DNA of 64,000 bases, taken from contig CBFFRP010000463.1 in NCBI GenBank assembly GCA_965644295.1, positions 1 through 64,000 of the forward strand. Reading direction: 5' to 3'. Numbering within the stretch: position 1 is the stretch's first letter; each line of letters opens with the position of its first letter. The translations under genes were made by a program, and so were the position numbers. The DNA comes from Paraphysomonas bandaiensis (Eukaryota; Protista; Chrysophyceae). The notes under the pieces were generated by a model, which saw nothing but the letters and a program-made list of their open reading frames with translations, did not search any database and was not told where the DNA came from. Positions 1 through 59,790 of the stretch are shown in pieces.

Positions 1-310
1 TAGTTGCTACCACGAACAGTCGCTTTCCCTCATCACTATCTTGGCATTGACTAATGTATCATCCAGTGGATCGTTCGCGAATCTTCCCCAACAGGATGTT
101 GCCTCCTTCGCATCCACATATGCCCCTCGCTCCTCTTCCCTTCCATGACACATAATCCGTATCCTCTGATGCTCTCCTCTGTTCTGCTTCTTCCGCAGAC
201 CATCGCTCGCCGTCATATTCACATATTATTCCATCTTCTCTTATCTCTTTTGTTGCGAAAAGGCCCCTTCCTGCTCCTCTCAACGTCGACGGCATGACAG
301 TCACCCTATT
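1..310 (-). CDS. SET domain (lysine methyltransferase) within the retrotransposon polyprotein, broken by two small frameshifts and truncated by the window edge
   Basis: Main frame: VTVMPSTLRGAGRGLFATKEIREDGIICEYDGE...DTDYV. Second frame (ORF 7..222): YVDAKEATSCWGRFANDPLDDTLVNAKIV. After another shift at ~nt 25 the reading is RLFVVAT. These match SET motifs GxGLFA, EYxGE, DA...RFxN and the strand before GEEL. Confidence 0.85.
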
Positions 311-3300
311 GTACCCGGTAGCTTTCTTGTCTCGCAGAGCCCATAAATCTCTATCCAATTCGACTTCCTTCCAGTCATCCCTATGAGGCACCTCTCTCGC
401 TGGTCTCATCTGCTGCTTTGGCTTTTCCCTCAGTGTCCTATCCGACCGTCCATATTTGCTCACATGCCTCCTCCTCTCTTCCTCTGTCATCTGAACTCCT
501 TCATGCCACCCTCTCACTACGTTAGCTCTCCTGATCTCTCTATTCTCTTGGGCCTGTTCCTTATACTGCTTCCTCACCTCCTCTGCCTCCCTTACTTCTG
601 CCCTTCGTTTCTCAGCGCGTGCTATCCTCTTGGCTCTCTTCCTCTCCATGTCTTGTGCCAGCAAGATGTCCTCTTCCGTCACTACCCCTTTGTCCCACTC
701 CAGGTCGTCTGCCGTTAAATATTGTGGCTCTTCTCCCTTTCTCAACAGCCTCGATACCGCATCCGCGTCCATATGCTTCGTCCCTTGCTTATAATGGAGG
801 TGGAAGCTCATTCCCATCAGATCCAGCAGATATCTCATGAGCCTCCCATTATTAGACGCGGTCTGACCCTTATACATATATACTAGTGCATTATGGTCCG
901 TGTACACATCCACTTCATTTGCACATCGTAGGTACAGATCCCAATACATCATACAGTCATGCAATGCTTTACACTCAATCTCCGTCGGCGAATATTCCCT
1001 TTCCGTAGCATTCAAAATCTTGCTCCAATATGCTACTGGATGCCACTCCTCCTCATCATCCTGCTGAAGTAATATAGCTCCTATCCCTCGACCCTTCCGG
1101 CATGCATCTACCCTCACCTGGAATGGCTTGGTATTGTCCACCAGACGCAAGCATGGATGAGCCATCAGTTCCTCTTTTAGTCTATCAACGGCTTCCTCGT
1201 GTTCCTCATTCCATGCCTCCGCTACGTTTACTCCTTTCCTTGTTAGGTCATGCAATGGTGCCACAATACTCGCATAGTCCTTGATGAAATGTCGGTAATA
1301 TAAGGTCAGCCCTATAAACGCTCTTACAGCTGATACATCCTTCTTTGGATATTCCAATTCGTCTATGGCTTTGACCTTCTCTGGGTTGGGGTATTTCCCC
1401 TTTTCATCCACCATGAACCCCAAAAATGCCATACTCGGGTAGTTCAGATGCACCTTCGTCACCTTGAACACCAAGTCCTTGCTCTCAAGTTGTTGGAACA
1501 CCTTCCCTATGGATCCATAGTGCTCCCAGAACTCCCTCGAATGTACCATGACATCATCCTGATATACTAACGCCTCCTCCTGACTAATGCATTGGAATGT
1601 CTCCGCCACGATCCTCGCCCATTCGTTGGCACTGTTCCTTCCTCCTTGCACCATCCTTGTTGGCTGAAGGTACTCGTCATGTGTTCTATATGCAAACTTT
1701 GCTCTGCTCCCCTTCTCCAGGTCTACCACCCAAAACGCATCCTTGATATCCCCAACCGAGAAGTGCTTCGTTCCCTTTTTCACTTGGTCCAACAAATCAT
1801 CAATCCTCGGCAATGGAAATACATCCGGTAACGTCTTTGCGTTCACTTCTCTGCAATCTATGGTTTGTCGGTAGAAGGTAGCCACCTCTTGCTCATTCCT
1901 CGGGTCCCACATAGCCTCCCTGGCATGCTCCCCCCATTTTTCCTTGAATTTTTCAATTCTATCCCTATATGGTATTAGTACCAATGCTGATGCCCACGCC
2001 CCTGGCTCCGCTGGTTCCACCTTTCGTTCTCTCTTCCCTATCCTCGCTTTTGCCTTCATGAATGCTTTCTCTACATCATTGTACCTCCTCGGTCGACACA
2101 ACACTGGTTTGTCATCCATGGTTCTGATTCCTGTCTGATAATTTCTTAATTTTTTCGGGTTGTCGGGATCCGGATGCACCAGCACATTCGCCCACGCTAC
2201 ACATCGAGCCAGTAAAATCGCTCGCTGGGTTGGTTGTCCATCTTTCACGCATATTCTCCACTTCCCTTCTCGCCCTCTAACCCTTTTCTTCCACTCCTGT
2301 CTCTTCTTCTCCGCTACTGGGTCCTCATCCTCACAACTTTCCTCCCCCAAATCTAGGACCTGACTAGGTCTCCATGGTGTCTCCACTGGATGATATCCCG
2401 CTCCCCCTGGATCCCATATCTCCGTTGACCATAGTAAGGTCATAGCTATATTGTCCCTGGCAATATCCAGATAGTCTATGATTTCCCAGATTACGTCTGC
2501 GCGCCGCTCCTCCGGGTATTCCTCTCGGATTGCTACATAGTGCGCTTGATCATCTGGACTCATCCAGTGCCATAGAGCCGTCCACGGATACTTGAATTCT
2601 GGCGGACATTCAGTGGATTGTGGAGTCGCTTCTACTACTCGCGTGGTGTGTGCCCGTACCTCTTCCTGGTCCTCTTGCTCATCCAGATCCTCATTCGTAT
2701 ATCGCGGCATCTGATATACCGGCTGTATTTCGACGCTGATTGCCGACCGATGTAACTTAACGGGCTCGGATGACCAATTTTCCACCCACACCCCATGAGT
2801 TCCTGTGCAGGACGTCACGTCCGGAATACGTACTACCTCTCTCCACTTTCCCGCTATGATCCCTTTCGGCACATCCTGTCTTACTACCGTTACAATTGAC
2901 GACGCGAGAGGTGAGGTCTCCATCTTGTGAACTGGTACAAATTGGACTGAATTTGCCGGGATGGTGGCTCGCTGTAGACACGCTCTGTGTGCCCTCCGTA
3001 CGCCATTGGCCCGACGAACCCCCTCCATAAACTGATATATCCTGGCCTCCTGAATAGGACTTCTTTGTTTTCCAATCCATTCACATGACCCTGCGTATGA
3101 TCGTCCACTCATCACCACATCAATACCTGACTCCGTGGTAACCACGAACGCTCGATGTTTCTTAAGCTCAATCGCATCCGATCCTCCCCACAGTGCTGAG
3201 ATCGTCAGCCCTGGTACTAGGTCAAACCTTCTCTCCCATATCCCTTTGACCGGCGGCCCGGTTTGCAACCGTCCATGCATTTCCCCATAATATTGTACGC

Positions 3301-6300
3301 CTTCCACCTCCATTCTCAAGGTGGTATATGACGTGACCTCCTCTGGCTGGCCATCACCCCCCGTGGCTCCCATAATACGATAGCGTTGGTGCTGTGGTAA
3401 CACTGTGATTGGCAAGCCCATCTCCTTAGCCAATCCTTCATGCATAAACTTCCAATCAGATCCTGGATCCACATGTAATACCATAGGCATCCGATTTCCC
3501 TCGACTTGGGCAACCCCACACCACATGGTTAGAGAGTCTGGCTTCCCATTCATTCCTGCCTCTGTTACCGACGTATGAGCTAGGCTGACCCTAACTGGTT
3601 TGTCCTCCTGTCCCTGCCCTCTCTCTTCCCCGTCCTCCTCGTACCAGTCCTCATCCCACTCCTCTTCCGCTTCAGACATCTCTACCCTGGCGTGATTCAT
3701 TCTGACAAACGCTTGCAAATTCTTCTCCTTCTGGCGCGAGACTTCGGCATGGAAAGCTTTCTTCTCCTCCTCTGTGAATGTACTCCATGCTGACCGAGAC
3801 TCCTCCATTTTCCTTACAATTTCTTGGTACGCCCGAATTTCAAACCGCGTGAATTTCTCTGGTTGATACCCCTTCCACTTGCCAGATGTATCCCTCAATC
3901 TGTAGAAACACTCTCCCCGCTTGGAATGCTCAAATCCACACCAGTTGCACAGCACCCACCCATTCTTCCCTCGTGATGCCGTGTAGCCTCCTCCGCTCCC
4001 AGTGCCTGTCTCTCTCCTCCCTTCAGGCTTATCCGTCTCTGCCCCCTGATCTCTTTCTCCTCCTTCTTGGTAAGCTCCATGCGCCTTTACTGTCTTCTTG
4101 TGCGATCCGGTGACTCCTGGTATCTGTCCATTGGGATATGTATCCATCAGCTTCCCAACCACTTTCTGCACACAATTCACAATATACTCCTCGCTCTTCA
4201 TGTCCACCAGGCCTATCCTCCGATCCATCTCAATCTCTGCATCAACTCCTTGTCTCACCAAATTCCCTAATGGCCGTCCTGCGGTCTTCATTCTAAACCG
4301 TCTATACAGTTGCTCCGCTATATTGTCGTCGCCCACCTGTATGATCTTGTGTCTTAATTCTGCGAAGCTTTCGTCGAACTTCTCTAACGATGTTTCGTCC
4401 ATCTGGAATTCTTCCACTTCTCTCTGCAGCACCTCCTTCCCTACTTGTATGCCGAAAATGGAGGTGAACCTAATCATAAACTTAAACACCTCCACCCCCC
4501 ACGTCACCACATCGGTCTCCACCGCTGAACAGGTCGACTTGAAACCACTCTCCCCATGCTGTACTCTCGTAGCATACTTCCTTCCCAACTCCCCTTTAAA
4601 CGGAGCCCCCGTCATCAGGTGTAGACATAACTTCATTGGCGACCACTGAGCCATGTGGGCCGTAGATACTATTCCACTGAATATCATAATACAGTCTAAC
4701 CTGGTGCTCCCTGTGGGGAAGTCTACTTGGGGATATCCAATGTGAGCAGCTGGCTTTCCCGACTGTACCCAGTGCGGTATGGGTAGCTTCCTCAAGTGTT
4801 CCCTCATTTCCGGCAATACTTTGGCCATCTCCACCTGCTCCTCACACCTCTGCCGCAGCTCCGCGGTGATCTTCTCCACCACCCCTGGCGTCCTCATGCA
4901 CCATTGACAGAACTCCCCATAGCTCTTAGACCTCGCCTTCTCCACCTGCTGACTAGGGTCGTCCTCTTCCTTGGCCTCTGCTTCCCTCCCCCTTCTCATG
5001 CTAGTGCGAGCCTCTTCCTCTCTTCCTGTCATACTCTCCTTCTCTACGGTCAACCAAGTCTCCTCATCGCTGCTCACCTCGTCTGGATACTTTTCTCCCC
5101 ATCGATCCATGTTCGGTCTTCCTTCCCCTCTCATCCACCTACCCTGATCTCTATAGCTTTTCAGAGGCGGTCCTATCTCCCTGAGCTCTCTCAATGCTAC
5201 CTGAATGACCTCCTTCTGCTCCTCCAGATACATCAACCTCTCTGCCAACCTATTGCTGGTCGTGAGATAGTCCAGCAGCTCCGGTATCTTGTCCCTCTCC
5301 TGGCTCAGTAACTCGAAATCCATGTCTCGGCGCCCCCTGGTCCTTGCATGTTGGATGATCCCCAGCCACGACACATAGAACTCTCTTTGTATATCTGGTA
5401 CTCCCTCCTTCACTGCAGCCATCTTCAGCTCCTCCATCAATCTATCCAATACCCCTCTGTACGTGTTTTCCGTCATCCTCTCTCTCACATTCTGTATCTC
5501 TCTCCTCACCAGCCTCTCACTCTGCCATACATACTTGTCTTGATGTTCTGGTTCCACCGGCTTCACCAGATGTAGCAGCATATTTCTCTGAAGCATGTTC
5601 CGGGTCTCCTGTGATAGTCCCACGGGTTTCGAGGCTACATGAATGTCCTCCTGCATCCATCCTCCATCTCGTCTGCTCTCCTCCTCATCTGTCCTCCGTC
5701 TACCACTGGACCTACTTCCCAAACTCCACTCATCCTGTGACAACATCTCCTCCCCTCGTCTTCTTCTTCCGCCCCCTACTCCCATCGCAGCCAACTCTTC
5801 CATTACTGGTGTACTTCGATACTCGTCCCCTATATCCCTTCTGGCTGGTGTCTTCGGATAGTCGTCCCCTCTTTCTCCCCTATGAGACTGCCAATGCTCT
5901 GCTCCTGTGGCCTCCCTCCTACTCGTCGGTGTCTGCCCCTCTTCCCTCATTATCTTCCCTTCTCTCCGACCTCCTCTATACCAGCATACCCAACACTGTG
6001 TAGCATACTTCGGCGCTGATCCTGCCTTCAGTACTGCCTGGCAGCTCTTACACTTACGATCAAATATGAGAGTCTCTGTCCGTGGATTCCCTCTCATCTC
6101 TATCACAGGCTGATCTCTCGCTTTCTCTGTCGCATACTTCTGTCGCACCCACACCCATGATGGAATATCTGCAGGCCTGCTCTCCCTCTCTTCCTGCTCC
6201 AATTCCCCTAGCCACATCTTCTCACTAAACAATTTCCTGGTGGTTTCCATACCCCTCGCTCCGGTCTCTCTCGCTCGTACAGGCCTTCCTGTTAGTGGGT

Positions 6301-6718
6301 CTCCCTCGTCTGACTCTTGATAGTCTGGTGCTCCACTCCAATCTCTGTACAGTCTCTCCCCTGTGGCCCCCATCCCTGGCCTGCCCTTGTTGCTGGGTCT
6401 ACTCCCGTCCCCACAGTTGTAGACTGGTTCTTCCACTGGGGCCGTCCCTTGGCCGGTCCCGGTATCCCCCCATGCCTCAGAGAGTGATATGTCCCGTGCA
6501 CAGTCCACATCGTCCTCCCATCGCTCTGCCCTTCGCTCTTCCCCACTTTGGGATCGTTGCCATGAAATTCCGCTGCCCCCTCTTCTCCGTGGCTGATCAA
6601 TTCCACTGGGTCGCGAGGGCAGCCCACGTTGTCCACCACATGAGACGATCGGAGATGTGGGGGTCCTTGGCAGAGGGCTTTGCCTTGTTGATGCATCAGT
6701 TGGGTACCTTATGCTCAT
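59..6718 (-). CDS. Gag-Pol polyprotein (gag, Zn knuckle, aspartic protease, RT, RNase H) fused to the N-terminal half of a SET domain
   Basis: Knuckle CNWCGFEHSKRGEC (~3908-3949). Protease LHVDPGS (~3446-3478). RT motifs WASALVLI, FPLPRIDDLL, DIKDAFW, RMVQG, YQDD (1553-1564), FLGFMV. RNase H motifs VRVDACRKGRGIGAILLQ, TEIECKAL, VYTDHNAL, DADAVSR. Ends in GAGRGLFATKEI..ICEYDGE. Confidence 0.93.
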   Translation of the reverse strand: MSIRYPTDASTRQSPLPRTPTSPIVSCGGQRGLPSRPSGIDQPRRRGGSGISWQRSQSGEERRAERWEDDVDCARDISLSEAWGDTGTGQGTAPVEEPVYNCGDGSRPSNKGRPGMGATGERLYRDWSGAPDYQESDEGDPLTGRPVRARETGARGMETTRKLFSEKMWLGELEQEERESRPADIPSWVWVRQKYATEKARDQPVIEMRGNPRTETLIFDRKCKSCQAVLKAGSAPKYATQCWVCWYRGGRREGKIMREEGQTPTSRREATGAEHWQSHRGERGDDYPKTPARRDIGDEYRSTPVMEELAAMGVGGGRRRRGEEMLSQDEWSLGSRSSGRRRTDEEESRRDGGWMQEDIHVASKPVGLSQETRNMLQRNMLLHLVKPVEPEHQDKYVWQSERLVRREIQNVRERMTENTYRGVLDRLMEELKMAAVKEGVPDIQREFYVSWLGIIQHARTRGRRDMDFELLSQERDKIPELLDYLTTSNRLAERLMYLEEQKEVIQVALRELREIGPPLKSYRDQGRWMRGEGRPNMDRWGEKYPDEVSSDEETWLTVEKESMTGREEEARTSMRRGREAEAKEEDDPSQQVEKARSKSYGEFCQWCMRTPGVVEKITAELRQRCEEQVEMAKVLPEMREHLRKLPIPHWVQSGKPAAHIGYPQVDFPTGSTRLDCIMIFSGIVSTAHMAQWSPMKLCLHLMTGAPFKGELGRKYATRVQHGESGFKSTCSAVETDVVTWGVEVFKFMIRFTSIFGIQVGKEVLQREVEEFQMDETSLEKFDESFAELRHKIIQVGDDNIAEQLYRRFRMKTAGRPLGNLVRQGVDAEIEMDRRIGLVDMKSEEYIVNCVQKVVGKLMDTYPNGQIPGVTGSHKKTVKAHGAYQEGGERDQGAETDKPEGRRETGTGSGGGYTASRGKNGWVLCNWCGFEHSKRGECFYRLRDTSGKWKGYQPEKFTRFEIRAYQEIVRKMEESRSAWSTFTEEEKKAFHAEVSRQKEKNLQAFVRMNHARVEMSEAEEEWDEDWYEEDGEERGQGQEDKPVRVSLAHTSVTEAGMNGKPDSLTMWCGVAQVEGNRMPMVLHVDPGSDWKFMHEGLAKEMGLPITVLPQHQRYRIMGATGGDGQPEEVTSYTTLRMEVEGVQYYGEMHGRLQTGPPVKGIWERRFDLVPGLTISALWGGSDAIELKKHRAFVVTTESGIDVVMSGRSYAGSCEWIGKQRSPIQEARIYQFMEGVRRANGVRRAHRACLQRATIPANSVQFVPVHKMETSPLASSIVTVVRQDVPKGIIAGKWREVVRIPDVTSCTGTHGVWVENWSSEPVKLHRSAISVEIQPVYQMPRYTNEDLDEQEDQEEVRAHTTRVVEATPQSTECPPEFKYPWTALWHWMSPDDQAHYVAIREEYPEERRADVIWEIIDYLDIARDNIAMTLLWSTEIWDPGGAGYHPVETPWRPSQVLDLGEESCEDEDPVAEKKRQEWKKRVRGREGKWRICVKDGQPTQRAILLARCVAWANVLVHPDPDNPKKLRNYQTGIRTMDDKPVLCRPRRYNDVEKAFMKAKARIGKRERKVEPAEPGAWASALVLIPYRDRIEKFKEKWGEHAREAMWDPRNEQEVATFYRQTIDCREVNAKTLPDVFPLPRIDDLLDQVKKGTKHFSVGDIKDAFWVVDLEKGSRAKFAYRTHDEYLQPTRMVQGGRNSANEWARIVAETFQCISQEEALVYQDDVMVHSREFWEHYGSIGKVFQQLESKDLVFKVTKVHLNYPSMAFLGFMVDEKGKYPNPEKVKAIDELEYPKKDVSAVRAFIGLTLYYRHFIKDYASIVAPLHDLTRKGVNVAEAWNEEHEEAVDRLKEELMAHPCLRLVDNTKPFQVRVDACRKGRGIGAILLQQDDEEEWHPVAYWSKILNATEREYSPTEIECKALHDCMMYWDLYLRCANEVDVYTDHNALVYMYKGQTASNNGRLMRYLLDLMGMSFHLHYKQGTKHMDADAVSRLLRKGEEPQYLTADDLEWDKGVVTEEDILLAQDMERKRAKRIARAEKRRAEVREAEEVRKQYKEQAQENREIRRANVVRGWHEGVQMTEEERRRHVSKYGRSDRTLREKPKQQMRPAREVPHRDDWKEVELDRDLWALRDKKATGYNRVTVMPSTLRGAGRGLFATKEIREDGIICEYDGERWSAEEAEQRRASEDTDYVSWKGRGARGICGCEGGNILLGKIRERSTG

Positions 6719-6797
6719 ACCCGCGGATAACTTCTTACTACGTGCAATGACGTCTGATCTTACTAGGTGCCTGTTAGATGCTATTAAACAGACCCTT

Positions 6798-6810
6798 AAG
6801 CTCTGATAAT
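6798..6810 (-). promoter_or_regulatory. Candidate primer-binding site (tRNA-iMet-like)
   Basis: Minus strand reads ATTATCAGAGCTT. TATCAGAGC matches the classic TGGTATCAGAGC PBS except for the TGG. It lies ~80 nt upstream of the gag ATG. Confidence 0.4.
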
Positions 6811-7187
6811 CGTATAACTATCAATTATTAGAACTATCCTTACTTATGCTCTCATAACCTTAAAGAGTGACTCACATAGCAATCTTGCACTTACAAGCTG
6901 GCTCTACACTTAAACACCCATATCATACTTATCACCATCGTATCTCTACAGTTATCGTAATGCTGTCCCTGTAGTCGTACTCCTCTACTACTCATCGTAC
7001 CTATCTACTACTCATCGTACCTATCTACTACTCATCGTACCTCATACCCAATTACATACGTACTCACGTACCCAAGTACATATGCACACACATACCTCCA
7101 CCCAACAGCTACCCTACCACCGTATACTCACTGTAGTCAGGATACACTCACCCCACGATATATGGGACTACATGCGGATTTGTCACA
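6811..7187 (-). repeat. Putative 5' LTR
   Basis: Minus strand begins TGTGACA at 7187 and ends ...GTTATACG at 6811, next to the PBS-like site. The C-rich plus-strand bias fades near 7190. No second LTR is available to confirm, and the 3' end lacks the canonical CA. Confidence 0.45.
6985..7042. repeat. 20-bp tandem repeat (~3 copies) inside the putative LTR
   Basis: ctactactcatcgtacctat repeated head to tail. Confidence 0.9.
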
Positions 7188-7409
7188 AATTACATATATA
7201 TCTTTCGATCCTTGCATCTCACATAATACTGCACTCAATTGCAAGCATATAGAATCTTCAGATCTCAACATGGTGTAGTAGAGATAAATCGAGTTGGTGA
7301 ATGACAATGAATGATGAATGACATCTCTTATAATTTATAATTTTCTACTTAAAGTGTTTATCTAAGCTTTCTTACCAAGTTCAACTACTAATTATGTCGT
7401 TTTCTAACA

Positions 7410-7738
7410 TTGACGAATAAACAGGCATCGGACTAGGCCCACCTCAAGGGCATCCCTACTGAAGTCAAGTATCCAGGCTATTTCACATTAAGAACTGAGA
7501 GAGAAAGTGGTCACCTTGGTGCTTGCGGTTTCGCACAAGCAGCCTCCGTAGCGTCAAATAGTAGGATATCAGAGTTAAGCACTAGTTAGTTAAATTGTTT
7601 TGCTACAATAGTTCTGACTCTTACACGCCTATTGCTAATAATCAGACATATCAGAGTTAAGCACTAGTTAGTTAAATTGTTTTGCTACAATAGTTCTGAC
7701 TCTTACACGCCTATTGTTATTAATCAGACATTCACTAC
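7410..7738 (+). mobile_element. SINE-like dispersed repeat, copy A, with an internal 82-bp tandem duplication (7566-7647 / 7648-7729)
   Basis: Shares gaaagtggt..ccttggtgcttgcgg..cgcacaagcagc..tagtaggatatcagagttaagcactag..tctgactcttacacgcctattgctaataatcagacattcactac with copies at ~35.7, 58.2, 58.5, 58.9 and 59.6 kb. Confidence 0.8.
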
Positions 7739-14542: not shown

Positions 14543-14833
14543 AGCAAACAGAACAATATTTCCCGAATTGTTAATCCTGTGATATCGCCCAAGTGTCGGG
14601 TGTTGGGACTATGAATTTAAACTGAGATATGTCGTTTAACTCTTTGACTAATTCGCACTGTATGAACTGAAGCAATTTCGACTACGGATATAGAGGCTCT
14701 ATTCCAAGGGGGTTGATATGGAGAATAGATTAAGACAGACCAAAACCTGAGATCTATCTCACATTGTAATTAATTGGCATGACGAAAGATGAAAGTGGAA
14801 TGACTGTGTATTCTTGTAGTATACCAATATACC

Positions 14834-15328
14834 ACATACATACATACATACATACATACAGCAGTACATACATACATACATAACTGCATACATACATACA
14901 TACATACATACATACATACATACATACATACATACATACATACATACATACATACATACATACATACATACATACATACATACATACATACAGCAGTACA
15001 TACATACATACATAACTGCATGCACACATACATACATACATACATACATACAACATACATACATACATACATACATACATACATACATACATACATACAT
15101 ACATACATACATACATACATACATACATACATACATACATACATACATACATACATACATACATACATACATACATACATACATACATACGTACATACAT
15201 ACGTACATACATACATACATACAAACATACATACATAATACATACATACATACATACATACATACATACATACATACATACATACATACATACATACATA
15301 CATACATAGATACATACATACATACATA
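14834..15328. repeat. (TACA)n microsatellite, ~0.5 kb, between the divergent GBF1 and CCDC57 starts
   Basis: Direct sequence. The interruption block cagcagtaca..taactgcat occurs twice (~14859 and ~14991). Confidence 0.98.
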
Positions 15329-15708
15329 TACTACGGATCGTGTATATCTCACTCCATTTCAAAAATCAAATGCCACTATGATCTAATTGGATAACTGAAT
15401 ATGCAGCAGCATACAGTGATGCATATAATAATTGTTATATTGAGTCCACCAATGTCTGTGTAGTGCATTACATGCGTTGCCCTGCTCCATATATCACACT
15501 ATATATGTAGTAGTAGTAGCGCTGAGTGTCCACAGTCGAGTGTTCTGCCGTGCGCTATCTAGTGTATCATTTATCTCTGTTGAACTCTTTTTTCGCAGTG
15601 GACTAATAGCCTTTAGAATCTCGAACATATCTCATATCTCCATCCTGAGAATTCACAATCTTTATGTTACTCGAAAGGTGTTAAGTGTCTCAAAATCCTT
15701 GTGTTAGG

Positions 15709-19149: not shown

Positions 19150-20143
19150 CATACTCCTGACATGGGACAAAACCCGGTCTAAACCTGAACAATGCCACAT
19201 GCTCCGACTGTGGCTTTCGACTTGACTCTCTCAAACATATGTGTCTTGATATTGTTCACATGACTCCATCTCACAGATACGAGAATCCGCCTTTCAGAAA
19301 CACAAGGAGAGACCCCGGGAACTTCAACGAGACCCGACCCTACCAACTTGGAGTGCCGTCATTCTCAAGAGGCTCTCCAGGAGAGAATGGAATACCTAAA
19401 TACCGCAATTTGAGCGATTCTGGAGGAGGACTATTTTTGAGGCCCAGCTGGAGATTGTGCTTTGAGTACTATAGTGCCGAATGTGCTTTAAAAACTCGCA
19501 AGGACTTTGTACTCTAGAAATAGCCAGCCACTTTATGCTGCCACCAAACAAATGATTCAAGTCCACAGTCGCCACTAAATTACCACACCCAAAGGGCCAC
19601 ATAGACTCCCCCAGTACACTTCGGAAAAGTAGCAACACACGACGGAAACCGCGGGCACTTCGCTTACTGAGTGTAACCAGAAAACCTACTACACTAATAG
19701 TCTCTCACCCACAGCCCCTGCGCCGCCTCTTCCAGCTATTCCTTTGCCCCAGGCCCAACTCACCATCTCCAGACACGTTGGAGCCCCAATTCACCCTCTC
19801 GCCCATGTATCTCAGTCTAGGAACACTCGACTTATTAATTCAGAATCCTATACCCCCCAAGCCCTGCAAAGCCCTACACTAAAGGACGCCCCTCTGACTA
19901 ACCCCATCTGCACTTCAAGAGCTAGTCCATAGAGAGAGCTTCTCCCTCACATACAAGAGCGGAAGTGGTCGCACCTTGGTGCTTGCGGCGACGCATAAGC
20001 AGCTTTTGTAGCGTTATATAGTAGGGTATATGAGAATTTGTACAAGTTAGTTACAGGTAGACGTCTATCTAGCTAGACTAGTTTCATCTGGCTGCTATTC
20101 TGGTGCATATTCTTATCGCCTATTGCTAATGATAAGACTTTCT
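19150..20143 (+). mobile_element. Decayed 5'-truncated non-LTR retrotransposon (LINE) 3' end
   Basis: Reading through stops and one frameshift gives HGTKPGLNLNNATCSDCGFRLDSLKHMCLD/CSH, a CCHC finger typical of LINE ORF2 C-termini, then FERFWRRT. The 3' UTR (19960-20143) carries the same stem-loop and cgcctattgctaat end as the SINE-like family. Confidence 0.65.
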
Positions 20144-35226: not shown

Positions 35227-35694
35227 ACGCGTATTTGCATAGTGTTGTTGTGCATTTATATGAGCACTCAATGTACACTGTAACAGAAAGATGTAGTTGT
35301 GAAAAGCATGTTGCATATGGAAGAAAGTAAAATTCGATTAGAGTTGCTTGTTGCTTTTTATGTGTGAAATGATCGCCAACATGTATTGCACAAGAGTACA
35401 GTTCGCAATTGAAGCTGTTGTTTTGTGACGGCAGTTGAAGTGGAGAATAGTAGCGCACTATTATTTTCAAGCGCATGAATTGCATTATAGATTTACTTCG
35501 TTCCTAGTTCCTACATATATACTATTCTCAAATATAGCAAACGTTGATTCTTGGAAGAAACCAGCTGCTTGGTTCTTGTCGATAGAAATCGGTTAGACTT
35601 TGTCTAAATCTGAAATTTCGATTAGAATGGTGTAACTTAAATAGCTGTAAGAGTACACTCACTCAGTACATACTATAATTCTGTTTAAGAGCTA

Positions 35695-35860
35695 AAAATG
35701 ATGGTTGCACCTTGATACTTGTGGTTACACGCAAGCAGCATTCGTGGCACTAAATAGTAGGATATTATAGTTAAGCACTAGTTAGTTAAATTGCGATGTT
35801 AAATAAGTTCTGACTCTTACACGCCTATTGCTAATAATAATCAGATATTCACTACTACTA
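35695..35860 (+). mobile_element. SINE-like family, 3' module (copy C)
   Basis: Same stem-loop and tail as copy A, ending attcactactacta. Confidence 0.8.
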
Positions 35861-58177: not shown

Positions 58178-58370
58178 AGTAGTGAATTCATTATTACTAA
58201 CAATAGGTGTTTAAGAGTCAGAACTAATGTAGCATTGCAATTTAAATAACTAGTGTTTAACTCTGATATCCTACTATTTAGCGCTACGAAAGCTGCTTGT
58301 GCGTCACCACAAGCACCAAGGTGCAACTAATTTGCTCTATCACTCAAAGCACACGCAGTGAGAAAGCAAA
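58178..58370 (-). mobile_element. SINE-like family, copy D (inverted)
   Basis: Reverse complement of the stem-loop and tail: gtagtgaat..aataggtgtttaagagtcagaact..ctctgatatcctactattt..tgcttgtgcgtcaccacaagcaccaagg. Confidence 0.85.
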
Positions 58371-58469
58371 ATGTTGATATACCTGACATCTGCTGACTTC
58401 AGGATTTTGGAGTTATAATGGCCGCATTCCCGGAAGCTTGACTTCAGCAGGGTGCCAAAACCTTTGAAT

Positions 58470-58945
58470 GATAAGAGAAAGTGATTGCACTTTTGTGCTT
58501 GTGGTAACGCACAAGCAGCTTTCGTAGCGTTAGATAGTAGCTATTAGATGAAGTTCTGATTCCTATTCGTGAGTGCCTGTTTATTCGCCAAGACTCAAAG
58601 ACATCTATGCACAAGTGATATTTATATTAGTGTCCCTTTTGTACCACACAAGCATTCGGCTATGAATGGGCAGAATATTATATATCTCCGGTACTTTTCC
58701 CCCAGTACACGACAAAAGGTGCGAGTCCGACTTTGTTGAGGGCTACTTTTTCTGAAAAGTAAAGTTGTTATGACTTTCCAACTAGAGTTAATATTATTTA
58801 CAAACAACTATGAATGATTATCCAAAGTCCCTTATTTTCGACAAGTCATTGTACCTGTTGCACCTTGATAACAGAATTAGTTAAGTATCAGAGTTAAGCA
58901 CTGACACTTAAACGCCTGTTGCTAGTAATAAAACATTCACTACTC
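58470..58945. repeat. Cluster of SINE-like fragments: stem-loop module (58470-58540 +), upstream module (58560-58745 -), tail (58855-58945 +)
   Basis: Each segment aligns by eye to part of the 59325-59790 copy. Confidence 0.7.
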
Positions 58946-59324: not shown

Positions 59325-59790
59325 TTCCCTCAACAAAGTCAGACTAGCACGTTTTCGTGGGGATATCACCAGAGATATTTCTCTAGGAAACTAACGTGAA
59401 TCGCATATGTAGACGGCAGATATTGTTCTTCTCACTCATAGACAAATACTTGTGTGGTACAAGGGACGCTAAATAGTGTCACTTGTATAGAAGTCCTTGG
59501 GCCTTGACTAATAACAGATCCGGGAATGGGCCCACCCCAAGGGCACCAGGGATGCAAGTTGGGCGTTGGGCTGCCTGCTGCTGAAGTCAAGCATCCGGGC
59601 TGTTCACGTTAAGGACAGAGAGCGAAAGTGGTTGCCCTTTGGTGCTTGCGGTGACGTACAAGCAGCTTTCGTAGCGCTAAATAGTAGGATATCAGAGGTA
59701 AGCACTAGTTATTAGTTAAATTCTTTTGCTACATCAGTTCTGACTCTTACACGCCTATTGCTAATAATCAGACATTCACTATTCACTACT
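59325..59790 (+). mobile_element. SINE-like family, longest copy (upstream module + stem-loop + tail)
   Basis: Contains every module seen in the other copies and ends cagacattcactattcactact. No ORF. Confidence 0.8.

Follow-up and report, generated by a model that had tools for sequence, protein, structure and literature searches.

Retrotransposons are known that carry chromatin readers and DNA methyltransferases. In chromoviruses the Gypsy domain order is combined with a chromatin module tied to integrase, the module being a reader, the chromodomain, at the integrase C-terminus (bioRxiv 10.64898/2026.05.21.726589). Captured writers are found in DNMT-bearing long terminal repeat (LTR) retrotransposons (PMC5890265) and in the Gypsy-type DAM-LTR/EpiLTR elements, whose cargo came from other retroelements (DIRS) and one DAM-LTR clade of which has its writer between reverse transcriptase (RT) and integrase (bioRxiv 10.64898/2026.05.21.726589); in both cases it is DNA that is methylated. 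Here a predicted histone-type writer domain is described in an LTR retrotransposon located at one end of a 64,000-nt stretch of DNA from Paraphysomonas bandaiensis (GCA_965644295.1, contig CBFFRP010000463.1, positions 1 to 64,000; referred to as the window). Judged from its sequence, the element belongs to a Ty3/Gypsy-type lineage that has a conserved SET domain between ribonuclease H (RNase H) and integrase in Pol. It thus resembles the above elements in domain order and in carrying a captured writer or chromatin module, but differs from the DNA-methylating elements in the type of writer and from chromoviruses in that no chromodomain was present in SET-bearing proteins among its best 120 relatives.

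SET domains have been reported in mobile elements of two other classes. Dualen-1_GCr, a non-LTR Dualen/RandI element of the cryptophyte Geminigera cryophila, likewise has a SET in a retrotransposon polyprotein and also encodes a C48 peptidase and an AP-like endonuclease; it differs in being a long interspersed nuclear element (LINE) without LTRs or integrase in which the SET is listed first (PMC5029228). The Phytophthora Helitron-Helentron intermediate carries, as here, a transposon-borne SET with conserved cofactor sites, but is a rolling-circle DNA transposon with the SET as a separate open reading frame (ORF) that was compared to Clr4 (PMC4067079). The initial annotation of the window had stated that no well-described Gypsy lineage with this architecture was known. 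For LTR elements this stood, as no SET-carrying case was found in the literature searched, a search outside the scope of which lay Repbase and subscription journals, so that an earlier description is possible; the novelty is nevertheless smaller than the annotation suggested, given the two cases above. A SET in LTR elements is therefore apparently undescribed, while a SET in a LINE and in a Helentron is already published. The term SET is absent from the main text of bioRxiv 10.64898/2026.05.21.726589 and histones are unmentioned in the accessible part of PMC6338049.

An intact copy of the window's family was found in two proteins of the ENA. One of these, P0006, has 4 differences from the window over its first 805 residues, carries the whole SET in frame at residues 765–870 and continues past it into a region that precedes integrase in relatives. 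Running Pfam SET over the element had been proposed as a check, and the outcome was divided. The window piece itself aligned at residues 2183–2221 of its frame to the first 37 positions of PF00856 with 18–19 bits, under the cutoff of 22.4, whereas P0006 scored 52.5 bits. Two further proteins, P0005 (53.2 bits) and P0001 (43.8 bits), also exceeded the cutoff, and P0036 and P0062 scored just under it.

The spread of the architecture was evaluated using the RT-RNase H of P0011 as query. Of 7992 candidates scored, 188 proteins passed E<=1e-40, and the best 120 of these 188 were analysed. Using our own profiles, a SET was detected in 66 of the 120, and in 61 of these 66 it lies after RNase H and before integrase; four of the remaining five stop before integrase and the fifth (P0002) is a gene model without integrase. 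Pfam confirmed the domain order in the rows scanned. The initial annotation had asked whether the order RNase H, SET, integrase is a conserved open frame in other copies, which it is, the SET architecture spanning at least 61 protein clusters. The YxDD motif of RT is kept in 60 of 61 and the HHCC and D,D,E motifs of integrase in 58 of 58 SET-bearing relatives, so these look like working elements. Matches of the GPY/F-type C-terminal region of integrase to SH3_Tf2-1 and Integrase_p58_C were weak and below cutoff. The chromodomain PF00385 was detected only in two distant rows of the 120 (P0127 and P0128) and in none of the SET-bearing rows scanned, and the lineage is consequently not placed among chromoviruses.

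In the window the element is read on the minus strand. A stop-free ORF of 2252 aa spans 6817..62 in the order gag, protease, RT, RNase H, linker and N-terminal half of SET, this single gag-pol frame having its first ATG at 6718 and a premature end due to the first of two frameshifts. RT lies at 1412..1873 (PF00078, E 1.7e-15; YQDD at 1564-1553) and RNase H at 743..1213 (PF17919, E 4e-27; PF17917, E 2e-25; Pfam span 1213-815), ending in DADAVSRLL at 769-743. As had been noted, the frame then runs without a stop through a charged linker, described as being about 140 aa long and here measured at 147 aa (308..742; 38 K/R and 33 D/E, counted on P0006). The SET motifs that had been pointed out after RNase H are also present. 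The N-terminal half lies in the Pol frame at 146..307 (PF00856 positions 1-37, E 0.004) with RVTVMPST at 307-284, GAGRGLF (motif I) at 277-257, CEYDG at 223-209 and DYV at 157-149. The C-terminal part, with YVDA, GRFANDP and VNAK/NAKIV, follows in a second frame at 28..120 and matches P0006, and RLFVVAT returns to the first frame at 1..25 (to nt 2), leaving the window before the final motif. By comparison with P0006, P0016 and P0001, the final SET motif (GEE..YG.YW), the pre-integrase region and integrase would follow beyond nt 1. A lineage SET profile built from related SETs, with the window's own family excluded, scored 29.6 bits for the N-terminal half, 45.6 bits for the C-terminal part and 103.6 bits (E 3e-33) when the breaks were read through as X; no other region scored in six frames of the 64 kb.

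The two small shifts described previously are present in the window but are absent wherever public contigs align across them. All or part of the stretch is contained in 20 listed public runs (15 studies), of which 8 were compared; none of the 20 is listed as RNA, although X11 may be. Relative to a spanning contig, five single bases are missing at the first break (121..147), and at the second (26..27) one base is missing relative to public contigs, the extra base behind position 26 being found in all 8 runs. Extra bases behind 124, 131 and 147 were found in five runs (X1, X2, X4, X11 and X14), while X8 has a contig with five gaps over 91-169, X6 is without cover at the first break and the contigs of X7 diverge from the window sequence at 121 and 148. 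An X11 contig over 1-709 has six extra single bases (behind 26, 124, 131, 136, 141 and 147) that restore the frame, and extends 1367 nt beyond nt 1. Six single-base losses at most 125 nt from the window edge, in an otherwise open 6.7-kb frame, resemble consensus errors. The frameshifts are thus most likely either such errors or private damage of this copy and not a trait of the family. Programmed frameshifting was considered and rejected, as relatives carry the SET in frame.

The damaged edge also raises the question of whether the join is an assembly chimera, or an element inserted in a host SET gene, since the window copy is frameshifted near nt 1 and no single listed contig covers the whole element. 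None of the outcomes that had been named as refutations occurred, the chimeric join included. Apart from the intact copy in the two ENA proteins, a public contig over 270-1105 links RNase H to the start of SET, the X11 contig over 1-709 carries the join onwards, and the order is repeated in 61 clusters. This explanation is refuted and its remaining probability is practically negligible.

Conservation along Pol was evaluated in the 58 complete rows. Mean identity was 70% for RT-RNase H, 67% for integrase, 50% for SET, 38% for the post-SET region and 29% for the linker, which shows the lowest conservation of any part of the lineage's Pol and varies from 113 to 462 aa in length. When the window is compared with the X11 contig, the changes in the N-terminal half of SET are 9 synonymous and 2 replacement (pN/pS 0.06), and the two scored in the C-terminal half are both synonymous, in a count that leaves out six differences inside a gapped stretch. 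The SET is thus under purifying selection, in line with the dN/dS below 1 that had been suggested as a check. The linker shows 14 synonymous changes and 1 replacement in the same comparison and is as constrained as the SET at short range, meaning that this test does not single out the SET. Such a low value in the linker would also be expected if the SET were neutral cargo in a tolerant gap between RNase H and integrase, retained only because the frame must stay open. The gap is indeed long across the wider lineage (290–1034 aa in SET-less sisters) and accepts other cargo, for example an OTU domain in P0100. Positions of catalytic type are however invariant even between sequences that are only 31% identical, whereas the flanking regions vary in both length and sequence, which largely refutes neutral retention and leaves it very unlikely.

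The history of the SET was investigated by comparing trees of RT-RNase H and of SET. A FastTree of 116 rows placed the SET rows in a single group of 71 (support 88) together with four truncated rows and P0024, which is SET-less. When 44 selected rows were analysed with IQ-TREE, the SET rows formed two supported clades beside P0024 and a SET-less clade of 19 rows, the mutual order of all of which was unresolved; the SET label requires 2 changes on this tree with its four unresolved basal branches. A single gain of SET followed by losses is the likely history. In the SET tree (143 rows, FastTree, 126 columns) all 36 element-linked SETs fall within a group of 46 (support 87) that includes 10 rows without element flanks. 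By pairwise identity the SET follows the RT tree, with a Mantel value of 0.85 obtained on kin that are not independent.

A SET search of 1.84 billion proteins returned 6342 matches at E<=0.001, the best 150 of which were examined. The closest of these from outside the lineage are unnamed and include LINE-like proteins. P0182 and P0183 have a lineage-related SET ahead of a region resembling apurinic/apyrimidinic endonuclease (APE) (PF03372 at only E 0.06 in P0182), and P0191 and P0160 have one behind a C48/Ulp1-like protease, contents that parallel those of Dualen-1_GCr. These partners recall Dualen-like LINEs. The SETs of P0250 and P0213 nest among the LTR-element SETs and are followed C-terminally by a region containing YVDD and RNase H-like motifs. 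The RNase H match of P0250 was at E 0.003 with a probability of 10%, the best of 10 shuffles giving E 0.04, and a DIRS-like nature of P0250 is only a weak lead. Exchange of SET among retroelements, with another retroelement as a potential donor, is likewise a lead, and a host or giant-virus donor is possible; the SET tree names no donor. The finding points to an uncharacterised SET subfamily common to mobile elements.

The function that we propose is that the Pol SET is an active S-adenosylmethionine (SAM)-dependent protein-lysine methyltransferase that methylates histones at or near new insertions, a reading to which we assign a probability of roughly 0.47. Gypsy Pol is packaged and then cut by the protease of the element. 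A SET situated between RNase H and integrase would therefore reach the nucleus with the cDNA and the pre-integration complex, as a separate protein or still attached to the N-terminus of integrase, and would there methylate histones at or near the new insertion.

Several features of the domain agree with enzymatic activity. Across 65 SETs of the lineage GxL[FY], YxG, the D of YVDA, the D after RxxN/Q, the N of VNAK, the E of GEE, the Y at the catalytic position and the W are invariant. The two glycines of motif I G-x-G are kept in 64 and 65 of 65, both active-site tyrosines in 65 and the R of RxxN/Q in 64, and the motifs align with GWGV, EYVG, DSYLF, RFINH and GEELGFDYG..FW of G9a. A model of the SET reached a predicted local distance difference test (pLDDT) score of 93.1 when calculated from 91 sequences, compared to 45 from a 3-sequence input. 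Foldseek against the PDB returned 372 matches at E<=0.001, those displayed all being SET proteins; SETD8 and PRDM9 ranked first (E ~1e-9), and MLL, G9a and others scored similarly. The best viral structural matches were giant-virus SETs, including those of medusavirus and phaeovirus. The fold and the minimal SET core are thus common to the lineage SET and to SETD8/PR-Set7, PRDM9 and PBCV-1 vSET (vSET sequence match E 1e-4), whereas the lineage SET is only ~25% identical to these, has RxxND/QD for RxxNHS, lacks a zinc-finger array and is embedded in Pol. Pre-SET and post-SET zinc sites are both missing from this minimal SET. PF21549 (PR domain) scored 30.6 in P0006 against a cutoff of 27, and no C2H2 zinc-finger array was found in that protein; by these profiles the SET resembles a PR domain but is not a PRDM member. 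Of the 65 SETs, 61 have an aliphatic residue at the switch position. According to the Phe/Tyr switch rule, a residue other than tyrosine at this position leads to di- or tri-methylation, and multiple methylation is accordingly what the rule predicts for the lineage SET.

The following points weigh against the proposed function. The H/RxxNHxC motif is altered in all 65 SETs, with His replaced by Asp in 65 of 65, the Cys column unconserved and no Cys two residues on, and this motif is thought to be important for SET activity; one PR domain is moreover reported to bind no cofactor (PMC4146578). PDB searches gave no characterised enzyme of this ND subfamily, the best identities being ~25%, and TMq was 0.5-0.6 for SETD8, PRDM9, G9a and MLL alike, so that the structure scores indicate no substrate. 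The SET diverges faster (50% identity) than RT (70%) and integrase (67%). The 19-row sister clade and P0024 are without SET yet keep RT and mostly integrase, meaning that the SET is dispensable for transposition. Finally, the window's own integrase is not seen, as it lies past nt 1. The gag-protease-RT-RNase H order that places the element in Gypsy is visible in the window, and its integrase is deduced from relatives.

With regard to the altered motif, RxxND is found in 31 of 65 SETs and R/AxxQD, in which Asn is replaced by Gln, in 34 of 65. Among the best 150 of the 6342 SET matches, the ND motif is also common in SETs from outside the lineage, some of which are fused to PRMT5 or DOT1 domains, indicating a trait of the subfamily and not decay. 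In the large unnamed proteins P0175, P0188 and P0192, several ND-type SETs occur together with methyltransferase domains of PRMT5 and/or DOT1-like type. Several PR domains without the canonical motif have been reported active (PMC4146578). On balance the conserved positions make it quite probable that the lineage SET is active as a methyltransferase.

Alternatively, a catalytically dead or weak SET could bind histone tails as a reader or tether, directing integration in place of the chromodomain of chromoviruses. The altered NHxC (65/65) with its Asn to Gln change (34/65), the lack of a chromodomain family in any SET-bearing row of the best 120 relatives and the location of SET on the integrase side of Pol all agree with this, and inactive PR/SET domains have been discussed as possible readers (PMC4146578). 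A pure reader, however, need not keep the cofactor-side glycines, Arg and Trp, which are as invariant as the tyrosines of the lysine channel, and many stand-alone SETs also have the ND motif. We regard the reader function as unlikely.

An active enzyme could also have its target elsewhere, such as the element's own Gag, RT or integrase, host silencing or defence proteins, or bulk histones as for viral SET. The same invariance and conservation of SET positions would be expected, the minimal SET without pre- and post-SET zinc sites has its best viral structural matches in giant-virus SETs, and the neighbouring linker is rich in Lys and Arg. The fixed place beside integrase in 61 of 61 complete rows fits better with delivery together with the integration complex, and a target elsewhere is accordingly considered rather unlikely. 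If the SET is active, we lean towards a chromatin substrate tied to insertion or to the element's own expression.

In its widest form, the proposal that histones are methylated at insertions describes an old Gypsy lineage of microbial eukaryotes with a histone-lysine writer in Pol that would be delivered with integrase and mark each insertion, in which a large subclade adds an exonuclease III/AP-endonuclease, and whose SET subfamily is passed between LTR elements, LINEs and possibly tyrosine-recombinase elements; this is put forward tentatively. If true, an in-frame writer beside integrase in dozens of families would let the element set the chromatin state at its landing site. Since the SET is small, is predicted to fold independently and has natural variants (ND or QD; elements that have the SET or lack it), histone writing by a retroelement is open to direct test.

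The lineage is likely a large and old Gypsy-type family of single-celled eukaryotes. Only two eukaryote names occur in the lineage listing, namely the SET-bearing gene model P0002, filed under Amoebophrya sp. AT5.2 and with a SET identical to that of P0001, and P0096, a SET-less sister from the chrysophyte Spumella vulgaris. DNA near-identical to the window occurs in runs under four organism codes, so organism labels may reflect a co-cultured flagellate. SET alignment searches gave 87 pattern matches and 0 confirmed loci in metagenome contigs and 19 pattern matches and 0 confirmed loci in viral contigs. Contig searches with P0029 gave 2 loci, one being P0029's own Pol, and no LTR pair was found at locus L001 of this search. 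A search with P0018 gave one 1060-nt contig in a bacterial metagenome-assembled genome, which we read as eukaryotic DNA within the bin.

In 45 of the 66 SET-bearing rows there is also a domain resembling exonuclease III/AP-endonuclease (PF03372, scoring up to 58 bits). It sits between the protease region and RT (P0025-P0075 group; L001 617-8170), and by eye its motifs look preserved in P0029 and P0025 and eroded in P0064. We know of no LTR element with such a domain, and no case was found in a literature search on this point. A conserved unnamed region lies directly before the integrase zinc finger (P0001 ~885-1040; past nt 1 of the window) in the SET-bearing elements and in many SET-less sisters. 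It looks like a small beta-rich domain and had no Pfam match and no Atlas match of >=0.9. Among SET-less sisters, P0100 has an OTU protease at 831-960, between RNase H and integrase, and P0108 a NUDIX domain at 112-231, near the N-terminus.

Upstream of RT on the minus strand, the window element has an aspartic protease-like motif, VDPGS, at 3458..3472; a Pfam protease match was obtained only in the sister rows P0080 and P0081. A zinc-knuckle-like Cys/His motif of Gag (CxxC-x3-H-x5-C) was seen at 3908..3949, and the gag region aligns with gag-like sequence in P0002 (E 4e-7). The stretch at ~2730-2968, which lies between protease and RT, is beta-rich, is without a Pfam match and presumably resembles a degenerate dUTPase-like domain. 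The 499-nt stretch at 7270-6772 (6772..7270, minus strand) has TG...CA ends (TGTTGAGAT / ATCTAACA) with a near-perfect terminal inverted repeat. Contigs from 3 of 4 runs stop at 7270 and read depth roughly doubles or more across 6605-7112, which overlaps this stretch. It is likely the 5' LTR, the second LTR then lying beyond the window; no TGG-type primer site was found downstream of it.

The genes flanking the element look eukaryotic by eye, and two host proteins of the window had no exact counterpart in the protein collection. A short high-copy interspersed repeat occurs in both orientations at 7496-7738, 19956-20142, 35692-35847, 58179-58550 and 59619-59781 of the window. Several contigs connect the LTR edge at 7270 to differing points of this repeat, and these varied junctions hint weakly at target preference. 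Positions 14737-15383 are occupied by a long tandem array of (ACAT)n.

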